Source of the DNA: a virus
Taxonomy: Duplodnaviria; Caudoviricetes
DNA: 64,000 nucleotides
Reading direction: 5' to 3' (one strand)
Virus record (IMG/VR): IMGVR_UViG_3300032038_000041
Location: 1-64,000 of that record
Made by a program: the position numbers and the translations under genes. Below the pieces are notes generated by a model, which saw nothing but the letters and a program-made list of their open reading frames with translations, had not been told where the DNA came from and did no database searches. Below, piece by piece: positions 17,482 through 27,716 of this stretch. Every line of letters starts with the position of its first letter. Within the stretch, counting starts at the first letter, position 1.

Positions 17482-17496
17482 AAATTTTTATTTTTG

Positions 17497-17565
17497 TGAC
17501 CCAGCTAGGTGTCTATCCTAGTACAGAGAATTTTAGGGATTCTCCTCCGTGACGACGGCAAGGCC
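17497..17565 (-). tRNA. Atypical tRNA-like RNA with CTA anticodon (tRNA-Pyl-like geometry)
   Basis: GGCCTTG/CTGGGTC, D arm CCGT-CGTC-ACGG, GAGAAT-CCCTAAA-ATTCTC, T arm CTAGG-ATAGACA-CCTAG. Confidence 0.6.
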
Positions 17566-17607
17566 ATTTGACCACTTTTAAAGTCAGTGGTCACGACTGT
17601 TTAATAA

Positions 17608-23149: not shown

Positions 23150-24478
23150 TTAATCAGTATTATTGTTATTTGTGTCTTTTATTTTTAAAATTTTTAAAAT
23201 TTTTATATTTTTTGTTTTTATTCTTTTTAATCTTTCTTTCGAGATAAGATTTTCTATATTGTATAGGTCAATTTCTTCATGTTCAAGAATTAACTTTACA
23301 TTATACCCTAACTTTTTATAAACATCAAATTTATCTAACATCTCTTGAATGTCTAGAGTAAAATCAGATTTGATTTCTACTATTTCATTTGTTTCAGGTA
23401 AATAAAAATCTGGAACAGCTACTCTTTCTTGTTTTATTGTAGAATCAAAATATTTAATTCTAATTGATTCTACCTCATATTTAATTTTATTAGAGTCTAA
23501 TTCATTAGCGAAATCAATTTCATATGAACTTCTTAAAAATACAGTTTTTCCATCCCAAGAAATATGGTGTTCACTGTGTATATTTTTACCAAATATGTTT
23601 CCCGAGACTAAAATATTAGATTTTCCATTTAATATAGCTAATTTAGCAGATTCTGATAAATCTCTCCGTTTAATATTAAGATGATCTAATATATTATATA
23701 CTGCGCTCTCAGATTTTATATCATATTCTTTCATTAAATCTAGGGCTGATAAGTTTTTTGTCCAATACTTATCATATAATATGTTTCTAATTCTTTCAAA
23801 TTCATTAAATATTTCAAGAGTTCCAATCTTTTTAGGATTAAGCCCAATATTTACTAATCCAATTAATTGTTGAAAATTGTGTTCCTTGCAAAATTCATTT
23901 GTGCAATGATATGTCCCACAAATAGGACAACATCCTGAATTAATATGTACTAATCTTAAGTCAGAATATTTTTCATCAATTAATTTATTGTGTCTATTAG
24001 AACTAATTATTTCTTTTTCGTCATAATTAGTTAATAAATGTTTAACTTTTGTATTCTCTTTTCTAGTTACATACTTTTTATTATTCAATAAATTATTATA
24101 TGAGCATGCACAGGATGAATCGCAAAATATGTTATCTTTTCTCTCATAGGGTATTATCTTTCCGCAATTTTTGCAATATTTAGGATTTTTATAATAATCT
24201 TCTTTAGTCATCTTTTTAGTAAAATGAGAGGTGGATATATTATTAGTTTCACAAAAATCCTTTAATTTAAAATAATTTTTATCATTTGCTGAGCATCTAA
24301 GAATTCTTAAAACCTCTGTTTTATTTTTACTAGTTTTTATTGCTTTAATAATCTCTTCTTTTGCAATGCTTCTAAATAACCTATATTCATTTTTCAATTT
24401 TACAGAAATTTGATTACTATTTTTCATCACTTCTGTCTGGATTGAATTACTAGCTTCTTTAAAACCGTCTTTAATCAT
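23150..24478 (-). CDS. Putative homing endonuclease, PD-(D/E)XK (TnsA-N-like) with zinc motifs
   Basis: CKNC...FCDSSC, CPIC; RSSYE...PDFYLP....VEIKS. Confidence 0.75.
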   Translation of the reverse strand: MIKDGFKEASNSIQTEVMKNSNQISVKLKNEYRLFRSIAKEEIIKAIKTSKNKTEVLRILRCSANDKNYFKLKDFCETNNISTSHFTKKMTKEDYYKNPKYCKNCGKIIPYERKDNIFCDSSCACSYNNLLNNKKYVTRKENTKVKHLLTNYDEKEIISSNRHNKLIDEKYSDLRLVHINSGCCPICGTYHCTNEFCKEHNFQQLIGLVNIGLNPKKIGTLEIFNEFERIRNILYDKYWTKNLSALDLMKEYDIKSESAVYNILDHLNIKRRDLSESAKLAILNGKSNILVSGNIFGKNIHSEHHISWDGKTVFLRSSYEIDFANELDSNKIKYEVESIRIKYFDSTIKQERVAVPDFYLPETNEIVEIKSDFTLDIQEMLDKFDVYKKLGYNVKLILEHEEIDLYNIENLISKERLKRIKTKNIKILKILKIKDTNNNNTD

Positions 24479-24627
24479 AATTTTATTAAATAAATTTAAT
24501 AACTATAATAAAATCTTATCATTATAGAAATGGGGGATTTAAACTTATACTATATACTATGTACACTTAATAGTAAAAATCTCCCTAATAAAATTTAACT
24601 AAAGATTTTATTAAAGTACTTTTCCTG

Positions 24628-24700
24628 TGGATAAGGATGAAATCAAATCACGTTAGTGAGATTTTCAGTCTCATGCATACACCACGTCTGCCACTTATCC
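24628..24700 (-). tRNA. tRNA-Phe(GAA), copy 1
   Basis: TGAGA-CTGAAAA-TCTCA. Confidence 0.85.
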
Positions 24701-24707
24701 AATAAAA

Positions 24708-24852
24708 GCAGAGTTTTTATTTAGGGGAGGGTGTCTTGTTTTTCCAGATAATTAAATACACAACTAACTCTACACACAAAAAGTTTAATTATCTTTCATG
24801 TTGTTCCTACACTACAATTCACTCTGTGACCTCCCCAATGATACGCATCCTC
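24708..24852 (-). ncRNA. Candidate pseudoknotted RNA, copy 1
   Basis: GGGGAGG/CCTCCCC and CAGAGT/ACTCTG interleaved pairings; conserved blocks shared with 26164-26297. Confidence 0.6.
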
Positions 24853-25003
24853 AGTTTTAAGGATTTATATCTCATACTTAAATAAAGAATTAAATCTCTC
24901 TAAAGCGCATTTTCTTCATTTCAGCATATATAAAAAACTCAGAGTCTCTGAAGCGCGTTTTGTAAAGTTTAGAGAAGGATTTTACTCCCTCTCTTCACAA
25001 AAT

Positions 25004-26044
25004 TTACTTAATTTTTACAACTGCAATACGTGAACCAGTCTTACTAGCACCAATTCCTACAGCAGAGTTAACTCGAAGCCCACGATTCTCAAGATAATTC
25101 TTTACGACGTCAGCACGTTTCTGAGAAAGCTTTTTATTATAATCCTTGCTTCCTTCATTTGTTGCCTCTGCTACAATATCAACGATTGCATCCTGACCAA
25201 TACTGTCAAGTATAGTCTTTGCATCATCTGTAAGCTCGGAGCTATCAAATGCAAAACGTACAATCCAAGTATTCTCTTGGTTAGCTGCGGGCACAGGTAC
25301 TTGTATAATTTTCTCTACAACCTGTGGCTTTCTAGCAAGTTCATCCTTCAATTGTGCAATAGTATTCTCATAATCTGTGATATCATATAGCTTAAAATTA
25401 TGCCCCTTATTTGATGTCTTAAACTTATAAATAATACCAGCACTTAGACGAAGAGCTGAATGGTTTACGTCAAATTGAACTTTATCACTTGAATTGAGTG
25501 CATATACGATAGCTGGTTCAACATAAACCTGCCATGCCTTCTTTTTTCCAAGATTAAATGCAAAATCAATACCAAGCTTAGAAGTCAAATAATTACCTTT
25601 GACAGAGGGTATACGATCACCGTAAACATGACCCCAACCAAGTCCTGCAATAGGAATGGTCTCAAACGTCTTAGGTTCGCCACCGTATCCATTGATAAGA
25701 TTAGTAAGGTTCATTGTTGTAAGCACAGAAATGTTACTGGACTTGATAAATGTTCCAGTATTAGGATGGGGATTATTATCAAAATAAGCTTCTCCATCTA
25801 CTGCTACACCCCAAATAGGAGTAATCCACTTTCCTACACGTACACCCGCTGTAGTACTCAGGTTCTTCCAGAATGTTCCACCATCAACGGTTTTGTATCC
25901 TGCACCAACATTAAGTCCTACATACACATTGTCAAAAATGTTTGACTGAGTCTGTCTAGCCAAAACTTGCTTCTCAATTACTTGAGCGTTTACACCAAGG
26001 ACTACTGCCATTAGCATAAACATACATAAAATTGTCTTCTTCAT
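25004..26044 (-). CDS. OmpA-family outer membrane protein (Bacteroidales type)
   Basis: Signal peptide, beta-barrel strands, VRFAFDSS...YNKKLSQKRADVVKNYL. Confidence 0.9.
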   Translation of the reverse strand: MKKTILCMFMLMAVVLGVNAQVIEKQVLARQTQSNIFDNVYVGLNVGAGYKTVDGGTFWKNLSTTAGVRVGKWITPIWGVAVDGEAYFDNNPHPNTGTFIKSSNISVLTTMNLTNLINGYGGEPKTFETIPIAGLGWGHVYGDRIPSVKGNYLTSKLGIDFAFNLGKKKAWQVYVEPAIVYALNSSDKVQFDVNHSALRLSAGIIYKFKTSNKGHNFKLYDITDYENTIAQLKDELARKPQVVEKIIQVPVPAANQENTWIVRFAFDSSELTDDAKTILDSIGQDAIVDIVAEATNEGSKDYNKKLSQKRADVVKNYLENRGLRVNSAVGIGASKTGSRIAVVKIK

Positions 26045-26087
26045 CTTTAAATTTGTTGTTAAAATCATTTGTGTTTTTAAAGGTTTG

Positions 26088-26160
26088 GGGGCCCTCGTGA
26101 AATCGAATCACGTTAGTGAGATTTTCAGTCTCATGCATACACCACGTCTGCCAAAGGCCC
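26088..26160 (-). tRNA. tRNA-Phe(GAA), copy 2
   Basis: Core nearly identical to copy 1, different acceptor stem GGGCCTT/AGGGCCC. Confidence 0.85.
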
Positions 26161-26163
26161 ATT

Positions 26164-26297
26164 AACAGGGTTTTTATTTTGGAGAGGTTGTCTTACTTTC
26201 ACACCATTACTTATTAGTCAACCCGGGAGTAATGGGAATGTTGTTCCTACACTCAGTAATTTACCCTGCTTCCTCTCACCAATGATACGCGATCCTG
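26164..26297 (-). ncRNA. Candidate pseudoknotted RNA, copy 2
   Basis: GAGAGG/CCTCTC and CAGGGT/ACCCTG; compensatory changes relative to copy 1. Confidence 0.6.
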
Positions 26298-26378
26298 GGT
26301 AAAATAAACCCAAGACAGTATCTCTTCCTCTTATAAGAATTTCAGGGCCTCTTAAACGCAAAAAGCCTTATTAATGTG

Positions 26379-27716
26379 ATGAAATATAAGAATTATTATT
26401 GGGAAGAGAGTAAATTGTTTACATTAAAAGAAGAAAATAGAAAATTAATAAGTAATACAAATATGTCTCCTCAGCAAGTAGAAGAACTTTTCTTAAATTG
26501 GAAAGATCTGTTCTGGAATGTTAGAGGAGCAGACTATACTAAATGGAAACATTATCGTCAACCCTGGTTTAGGGAAAAAGAGAAAGAATTTCCATTTTAT
26601 GATTATGGAGCTACTTGCCGACTAGTAATTTTTGATACATTCGAGGACAAACAAATAATCCGAGTTTGTGGTCATTACGAGTATGATAATAAAAAATGTT
26701 ATCTGAGTGAAGGAGGAAGATTTCTAATAGATCCAAAAACAAGACTAATAACTGATATTATTTTACCAGATACTAGATATAATCATCCTAAAACTTATCT
26801 TCCATTCTTAGATAGTGAGTATAATAAAATACATTATCAACTAGGTGGATATTCATCTGGTTTACATTGGAATAATCCAGAAAGAACTATATTTATCTTT
26901 CGTAAAATGGCTCCAGGAATAAAACCAGAAGGTGTTATAAAGAGACTTATGAAAATGATCTTTGAATATGATAATACTGTTGGTAAGAATGATACTTGGG
27001 GAAGAACGCTAGTGAGGGACATGGAATGGTTTGTTCAAGGAGGAATTCCAGAAATATTATGGAAAGAGGCACCCTGGTTGAGAGATCACTTATTTAATGC
27101 TCATGTATTTACTGATCCGCTAATAGATCAATTAAGTTATAAGTACGATTCACTACGAATAGCTATAAAACATGGGCTATTTAAGAAAGTTGTAAATACT
27201 GAAGACCTTCAGCTTTGGCTTGATATAGTGAAAATGATGGGAAGATTAAAGCTGGATAAACGAAATCCAAAATTTCTAGTCCCTGAAAACCTTAGGGAAT
27301 TTCATGATACACTAGTAAAACGAATAAATAGGAATACTATCCTCAGTAAAGCTAAGGCAGAAAGAAATCAAGCAAGAAGTTTAAACATAAAGGCCCTTGA
27401 TCAAACTTATGCAGAGACACATCAAGGTTGGCTGGAAAAAATATGGGAAAATGAAAACTTTATCTGTAAACCACTTCAAGATATAAAAGAATTCTTAGAA
27501 GTTGGAATTAAGATGAGTAATTGTATATTTTCAGCTAGATATTATATGAAGGAGACCTCTCTTATTTGTAAAATCATAGATAAGACTAGTAACGGTATTC
27601 TAGAAATTGCTGAACTTAGTTTACCTGGACTCCAAATTCTTCAATGTTCAGGTGCAAGTAATAAACTATCCCCTAGACATTCAGAAATTATAGACTTTTT
27701 GAAAAATGGCAAATGA
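26379..27716 (+). CDS. PcfJ-like domain protein
   Basis: NPKFLVPENL.E.HD; PLQ..KEF..VG.KMSNCI...YY....SLI. Confidence 0.75.
   Translation: MKYKNYYWEESKLFTLKEENRKLISNTNMSPQQVEELFLNWKDLFWNVRGADYTKWKHYRQPWFREKEKEFPFYDYGATCRLVIFDTFEDKQIIRVCGHYEYDNKKCYLSEGGRFLIDPKTRLITDIILPDTRYNHPKTYLPFLDSEYNKIHYQLGGYSSGLHWNNPERTIFIFRKMAPGIKPEGVIKRLMKMIFEYDNTVGKNDTWGRTLVRDMEWFVQGGIPEILWKEAPWLRDHLFNAHVFTDPLIDQLSYKYDSLRIAIKHGLFKKVVNTEDLQLWLDIVKMMGRLKLDKRNPKFLVPENLREFHDTLVKRINRNTILSKAKAERNQARSLNIKALDQTYAETHQGWLEKIWENENFICKPLQDIKEFLEVGIKMSNCIFSARYYMKETSLICKIIDKTSNGILEIAELSLPGLQILQCSGASNKLSPRHSEIIDFLKNGK

Follow-up and report, generated by a model that had tools for sequence, protein, structure and literature searches.

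A putative family of pseudoknotted leader RNAs 5′ of tRNA-Phe in uncultured rumen jumbo phages

Introduction

Phage tRNA clusters have long been known to hold stable RNAs of unknown purpose. GOLLD, ROOL and the T4 "species 1 and 2" RNAs are structured phage non-coding RNAs (ncRNAs) of unknown function that are co-transcribed beside or within tRNA clusters, and GOLLD and ROOL, which span 500–800 nt, are catalogued in Rfam. Here, we describe two paralogous leader elements of ~150 bases each, each abutting the 5′ side of a tRNA-Phe(GAA) gene, in an uncultured rumen jumbo phage (IMGVR_UViG_3300032038_000041). The 64-kb stretch of DNA analyzed, hereafter the window, is the first part of a 94-kb IMG/VR record estimated to be 25% complete. 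The phage is AT-rich and encodes its own multisubunit RNA polymerase, topoisomerase II, NrdD and many tRNAs, and the genomes of its relatives measure 240–400 kb. By context the leader element resembles GOLLD, ROOL, the T4 stable RNAs and theta ribozymes; it is a member of none of them, and with GOLLD, ROOL and T4 species 1 and 2 it shares neither sequence nor fold. It is best explained as a previously uncatalogued family limited to a small clade of jumbo phages from the rumen, all of them uncultured.

In mechanism the element comes closest to MALAT1/mascRNA, and in fold to an elaborated H-type, three-stemmed pseudoknot; it belongs to neither. As at the 3′ end of MALAT1 or MEN-beta followed by mascRNA, a structured A-rich 3′ module lies directly upstream of a tRNA-shaped handle (PMC8457004). 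An RNase P cut at the handle makes the 3′ end of MALAT1, which is then protected by the fold, and we infer the same cut for the element; in the related phage G002 the handle is, like mascRNA, a non-decoding tRNA-like RNA (PMC8457004). Unlike MALAT1, a eukaryotic nuclear long non-coding RNA with a U-rich expression and nuclear retention element (ENE) hairpin and a U-A-U triple helix, the element is a phage RNA with an H-type pseudoknot (PMC8457004). A U-rich partner clamping the A-rich tract is not conserved, and complementary U runs were found by inspection only in G002 and a second relative, G013.

Theta ribozymes are found in gut phages of Bacteroidota, where they lie 3′ of a tRNA and generate its 3′ end by cleaving at their own 5′ end (PMC10879173). 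Like them, the element is a small pseudoknotted RNA by phage tRNA genes with interleaved outer helices, yet it lies 5′ of a tRNA or tRNA-like RNA in all five loci and has no Rfam match (PMC10879173).

Results

Five loci in four phages share one predicted architecture

On the minus strand of the window, an upstream motif, element copy 2 (26161–26297), tRNA-Phe (26087–26160) and ompA (25004–26044) are followed by a terminator-like hairpin, the upstream motif again, element copy 1 (24701–24851) and a second tRNA-Phe (24628–24700). A first-pass annotation, made from the sequence alone, had placed both elements directly 5′ of tRNA-Phe, in agreement with sequence, ARAGORN and Rfam. The blocks that it listed as shared, GCGTATCATTGG, AGTGTAGGAACAACAT, AAGACA and AAATAAAAAC, are all found in both copies, and the shared 16-mer block has only two sites in the 94-kb record, both in these elements. 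Two of the four blocks, GCGTATCATTGG and the 16-mer, belong to this phage only and are not family-wide. The annotation had recognized no known family, and Rfam 15 indeed yields tRNA alone in 24400–26500, even at E ≤ 10. As for the promoter motif of the annotation, TGCGYTTWAGAG stands before both copies (24898–24909 and 26349–26360), but it is not a general promoter motif in the window.

All five loci, in four phages, show one architecture consisting of a 5′ hairpin (P0), helices A, B and C, hairpins 1 and 2, GACAA and an A-rich loop. In the 5′ half, P0 is followed by an 8–16-nt linker, the A 5′ strand (GAGAGG, or GGGGAGG in copy 1), 1–4 nt, the B 5′ strand and AAA. The middle comprises the C 5′ strand, hairpin 1, hairpin 2, an A-rich joint, the C 3′ strand and GACAA, and the 3′ end is formed by the A 3′ strand (CCUCUC), an A-rich loop of 9–10 nt (15 nt in G002), the B 3′ strand and 3–12 nt leading to the tRNA or tRNA-like RNA. 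This tail measures 3–8 nt in the four tRNA-Phe loci and ~12 nt in G002, so that, as with a handle of the MALAT1 type, tRNA-Phe or a tRNA-like RNA without anticodon arm stands just past helix B. The interleaving of helices A and B makes this an H-type pseudoknot. Where stems A and B meet, it carries an inserted three-way junction, in which helix C opens into the two hairpins.

Specifically, the leader RNA of copy 2 (26161–26318, minus strand; from sequence, helix mapping, covariance-model matches and RNA contig ends) has, by helix mapping, P0 at 26314–26308/26300–26294, helix A at 26277–26272/26187–26182, helix B at 26270–26263/26171–26164, helix C at 26259–26255/26197–26193, hairpin 1 at 26254–26236, hairpin 2 at 26235–26204 and the A-rich loop at 26181–26172. 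Its tRNA begins 3 nt past the 8-pair helix B, or 5 nt past the 6-pair core. The leader RNA of copy 1 (24701–24917, minus strand; from sequence, helix mapping, covariance-model matches and RNA contigs reaching 24915–24917) likewise has P0 at 24864–24860/24851–24847, helix A at 24836–24830/24730–24724, helix B at 24826–24821/24714–24709, helix C at 24817–24814/24739–24736, hairpin 1 at 24812–24798 and hairpin 2 at 24793–24747.

The order A 5′ strand, short loop, B 5′ strand, A 3′ strand, A-rich loop, B 3′ strand is that of classical H-type pseudoknots such as CPK-1 and of three-stemmed pseudoknots, with which the element also shares stems of 6–8 pairs and an embedded third stem (PMC11262651). 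In CPK-1, the stems stack with nothing between them, and a loop 1 of 1–2 nt crosses a stem 2 of 6–7 pairs (PMC11262651); in the element, loop 1 is 1–4 nt and helix B 6–8 pairs, varying by locus. Unlike CPK-1, it carries 65–100 nt (helix C plus two hairpins) between the B 5′ strand and the A 3′ strand, and unlike CPK-1 and three-stemmed pseudoknots its context is not frameshifting or translation (PMC11262651). Helices A and B interleave like P1 and P2 of HDV-like ribozymes (HDV, hepatitis delta virus), but P3/L3, P1.1 and P4 are absent: the A 3′ strand is led in by GACAA, with helix C ahead of it, and the interval between the A and B 3′ strands contains nothing that resembles P4.

Pairing is kept while sequence changes

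The first-pass annotation had pointed to interleaved helices with compensatory differences between the two copies (GGGAGG/CCTCCC versus GAGAGG/CCTCTC; CAGAGT/ACTCTG versus CAGGGT/ACCCTG) and to a central hairpin alike in form and different in sequence, and both observations hold. Two copies alone prove little, and the case rests on three extra members that keep the architecture. The annotation's suggested covariance-model check was run: models first built from the two copies, and then enlarged by new members, retrieved these three in related jumbo phages. Each locus has its own sequence in helices B, C and P0 and in both hairpins, with pairing kept. Helix B reads CAGAGU/ACUCUG, CAGGGU/ACCCUG, CGGGGU/ACCCCG, GCGGGG/CCUCGC and UGGGGU/ACCCCA across the loci, and helix C reads UUGU/ACAA, UUACU/AGUAA, UAUUG/CAAUA, UCAAU/AUUGA and GCUA/UAGC. 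In the model alignment, 95% of cells in A and B are paired, versus 38–61% with the partner slid; four pairs are changed on both sides, versus 1.3 ± 1.0 in shuffles (5 of 500 reach four). Closing helix C at the required place occurs in 8–33% of dinucleotide shuffles per locus, and helix C plus the adjacent hairpin in 2–15%, giving five-locus products of ~3e-5 and ~8e-7, respectively, which treat the five loci as independent. Additionally, G-U pairs in B, P0 and hairpin 1 fit the tRNA strand only, which places the RNA on that strand. Palindromic loops (GCGC, GCUAGC, CCCGGG) occur in four of the five loci and might allow dimers, on sequence grounds, being too poorly conserved for a claim.

Members are confined to a few related phages

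Because searches with neighboring proteins found no relatives, these were gathered via an RNA polymerase beta alignment, which gave 60 IMG/VR records, 25 of them searchable whole. The covariance models, built from the two copies, were rebuilt with the new members and followed by a third model. In G013 and G008 the covariance model places the element directly 5′ of tRNA-Phe, ending 3–5 nt ahead of it, and both of these tRNAs are canonical (57 bits). In G002 it lies ~12 nt 5′ of a 53-nt tRNA-like RNA (L108:1636–1688), which comes right behind the element; this RNA lacks an anticodon arm but has an acceptor stem, a D-like arm and a T arm. RNA polymerase identity among the four phages is only 63–68%, and related phages carry tRNA-Phe without such a leader.

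A further tRNA-like RNA with acceptor stem, D-like arm, T arm and no anticodon arm lies just upstream of P0 in G013 (L099:1428–1481). Both armless RNAs have the T loop UUCGAAU and fold z-scores of −1.9 (G002) and −3.0 (G013), and both are missed by ARAGORN and Rfam. The accompanying armless modules recall YrlA and bacterial Y RNAs (RF02553); Rfam gives no YrlA match on the element, and a search for a Ro/TROVE protein found none in G000, G002, G008 and G013, with positive controls. A weak YrlA-like match of 34 bits, below threshold, lies between two tRNA-Gly genes of a related phage (L175:1674–1794). Neither ARAGORN nor Rfam found a tmRNA (transfer-messenger RNA) or a T-box, the downstream gene being a tRNA. 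A UUC "specifier" was looked for and not found, copy 1 lacking any UUC triplet, and no pairing of the 5′ linker or the hairpin loops with the tRNA was found.

The third covariance model found no additional members in 26 records, and the homologous loci L113 and L114 gave only tRNA matches in Rfam. In two scans of IMG/VR, the conserved 3′ motif occurred only in element-bearing phages; it is absent from bacterial genomes, where 14 exact-motif matches were all due to chance. In metagenome contigs, the two-block pattern retrieved one near-identical strain (L037), and in IMG/VR neither that pattern nor the tRNA core retrieved anything. No cultured relative was found among GenBank phages. Searches beside ompA homologues led either to chromosomes of host type (L145, L148) or to phages carrying tRNA-Gly and another leader, and yielded no further members.

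Several candidates were rejected. The weak covariance-model match L130 reads as coding sequence by eye, and L125 and L128 align in the same way; L164, the next-best match of the third model, lies within an open reading frame; L153 is a chance match, as are all 29 matches of the 16-mer in IMG/VR.

The element–tRNA unit is present in RNA libraries

Thirteen runs recorded as RNA, all rumen or gut metatranscriptomes, contain part of this stretch. Contigs from four studies were mapped onto it; being assembled, they cannot show strand, ends or cleavage. Copy 2 is represented in three studies by contigs of 216–226 nt (26094–26318, 26091–26316 and 26090–26301) that hold tRNA, element and P0, and copy 1 in two studies by contigs of runs X1 (24664–24915) and X2 (24631–24855 plus 16 nt). 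Across the four studies, contigs with element and tRNA form units of 216–252 nt that end 3–6 nt from the tRNA 3′ end, and the other end of the copy 2 contigs lies just before P0. These contigs are distinct from those of ompA (25135–26062 and 24991–26056); the X1 ompA contig ends at 24924. No run covers 24560–24622 or 26324–26420, though neighboring depth reaches 36, and with these flanks uncovered transcripts fit better than DNA carry-over. Strain variants fit the fold: a C-to-U change in helix A gives a G-U pair, and the others fall in loops or joints. A short X1 contig sharing only the 3′ motif points to a further family member. Taken together, it is established, or very nearly so, that the element is transcribed on the tRNA strand together with the downstream tRNA and that this unit is separate from the neighboring ompA mRNA. 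The annotation's "ribozyme or tRNA-associated ncRNA" thus survives in its second half, with five loci, one architecture and RNA-library contigs in favor of an ncRNA; the ribozyme half is unsupported.

The rumen contig of run X2 carries a 47-nt deletion (24856–24902) that removes the 5′ half of copy 1 P0 and fuses the element with the TGCGCTTT motif; the linker sequence GCGUAU is a potential pairing partner of AUGCGC in this strain.

ompA and neighboring tRNA leaders

The ompA-family gene between the two cassettes (25004–26044, minus strand) is identified by a Pfam OmpA match (3e-10), its own RNA contigs and a syntenic homologue in G013, which has 41% identity and is found directly upstream of the element–tRNA-Phe unit there. 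More distantly related phages, in which the element is absent, also have ompA inside their tRNA islands. The first-pass annotation had offered the duplication as an explanation of ompA capture; this is not supported, because ompA is syntenic in relatives and lies in tRNA islands across the phage family, and ompA would not have been captured by the duplication. On this comparative evidence, ompA is the old resident and the second element–tRNA copy the addition. The closest homologues (~45% identity) are chromosomal ompA genes of host-type Bacteroidota, and ompA is likely a host-derived outer-membrane gene kept across the jumbo-phage family. Four rumen RNA libraries give good coverage of the phage gene. 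After it, a hairpin with a U run at 24932–24952 (minus strand), read by eye and not picked up by a simple scan, appears terminator-like and would separate ompA mRNA from the copy 1 unit.

The tRNA-Phe(GAA) of copy 2 (26087–26160, minus strand) is detected by ARAGORN and by Rfam at 46.7 bits and has the acceptor stem GGGCCUU/AGGGCCC; that of copy 1 (24628–24700, minus strand) scores 41.5 bits in Rfam, is missed by ARAGORN and has the acceptor stem GGAUAAG/CUUAUCC. Their cores are identical except for one T-loop base and the T-stem 3′ strand, but none of the seven acceptor-stem pairs is the same, nor is the discriminator base (A versus C). This pattern suggests either that the core underwent gene conversion or that two acceptor identities are selected for.

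In three loci of more distant relatives (L178:3545–3737, L146:7027–7275 and L175:1318–1569), another conserved non-coding stretch, 190–250 nt long and different from the element, comes after ompA and ends at tRNA-Gly(UCC). By eye, it contains the interleaved helices GGAGAAU/AUUCUCC and UUUAUCAAUCAUC/GAUGAUUAGAUAAA; substitutions among the three copies are wobble-compatible, and Rfam gives no match. It looks like a second, unrelated pseudoknotted tRNA leader. In addition, the tRNA-Ser(GCU) of the window has a gene-free 5′ leader of 126 nt with several hairpins (17482–17607, minus strand), which terminates in GGGUCAC-AAAAAUAAAAA-UUU right before the tRNA and recalls the A-rich loop of the leader element; none of the three covariance models matches it.

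Discussion

We propose that the element is a stable ncRNA that receives its 3′ end through RNase P cleavage at the tRNA and is protected by a 5′ hairpin and a 3′ pseudoknot, a proposal to which we give about an even chance of being right. The element–tRNA unit would start on its own, outside the ompA mRNA, and host RNase P would cut the tRNA 5′ end, 3–8 nt past helix B, freeing an RNA of ~160–220 nt. P0 would close the 5′ end of the released RNA, and the H-type pseudoknot of A and B would lock its 3′ end, with the 9–10-nt A-rich loop lying along helix A, so that the closed ends may confer resistance to end-dependent RNases. The tRNA would double as processing handle, a part that the tRNA-like RNA without anticodon arm would play in G002; the armless RNA upstream of G013 P0 could likewise define a 5′ end. 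In the course of infection, the most likely candidate role of the released RNA would be to bind a protein or to serve as a decoy or scaffold. All four tRNA-Phe loci have U immediately before the tRNA, and U is the base preferred there by bacterial RNase P. Since the G002 handle cannot decode, a role as processing handle is favored over supply of tRNA-Phe. Several observations weigh against the proposal. All RNA contigs bridge the element/tRNA junction, where cleavage is inferred. Transcript cover of copy 1 extends beyond the upstream motif TGCGYTTWAGAG. Helix A is nearly invariant across loci, nested-fold energies are no better than those of shuffles (z = +0.5 and −0.05), and the family amounts to five loci plus strain variants, a size at which covariation statistics are modest.

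The strict adjacency to the 5′ end of a tRNA or tRNA-like RNA in all loci, with tRNA-Phe as partner in four of five, and the sharing of one RNA contig by element and tRNA would fit a leader that acts in cis to control how much of the downstream tRNA is made or how it matures. Such a leader could tune RNase P cleavage, prevent mispairing between leader and tRNA, or act as a ligand- or protein-responsive read-through switch for the phage RNA polymerase. We consider this explanation unlikely, though a serious contender: no terminator or other expression platform lies between helix B and the tRNA, the G002 partner is not a decoding tRNA, the canonical tRNA-Phe of G013 and G008 needs no folding help, and relatives have tRNA-Phe lacking any such leader.

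The compact pseudoknot, with conserved single-stranded joints (AAA, GACAA and the A-rich loop) beside a site that needs a cut, could also bring to mind a new self-cleaving ribozyme whose cut, made at or near its own 3′ end, would free the 5′ end of the tRNA with no need of RNase P, and theta ribozymes set a precedent for small ribozymes beside phage tRNAs (PMC10879173). This is improbable, as no ribozyme family matches even at E ≤ 10, the helix order is without the HDV-type P3/P1.1/P4, and contigs of four studies span the junction uncut, which also leaves the ribozyme suggestion of the first-pass annotation unsupported. HDV-like and theta ribozymes, moreover, cut at their 5′ end and sit 3′ of tRNAs whereas the element sits 5′, and neither the length (3–12 nt) nor the sequence of the tail that links helix B to the tRNA is constant. 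Still less probable is a new ribozyme class that cuts a few bases past helix B and generates the 5′ ends of phage tRNAs and tRNA-like RNAs independently of RNase P. Least probable of all, the two copies would have no function at the RNA level: a promoter-plus-tRNA cassette would have been duplicated recently, and gene conversion would have kept the copies similar. The blocks of 12 and 16 nt that the window copies share are missing from the other phages and so may reflect recent common descent, and minimum free energy z-scores are not significant; yet B, C, P0 and hairpins 1 and 2 stay paired despite different sequences at five loci in four phages, the G-U pairs are strand-specific, and the element–tRNA unit is present in RNA libraries.

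The leader element offers a compact example of a tRNA-cluster RNA with a defined fold, presence in RNA libraries and a testable route of maturation. Its fold is small enough for probing, crystallography and cryo-EM, and could act as a portable stabilizing module when RNA is expressed in Bacteroidota. Should RNase P indeed produce a 3′ end capped by a pseudoknot, the arrangement would be a bacterial-virus counterpart of MALAT1–mascRNA, and the missing anticodon arm of some phage "tRNA-like" genes would be explained by their being processing handles.
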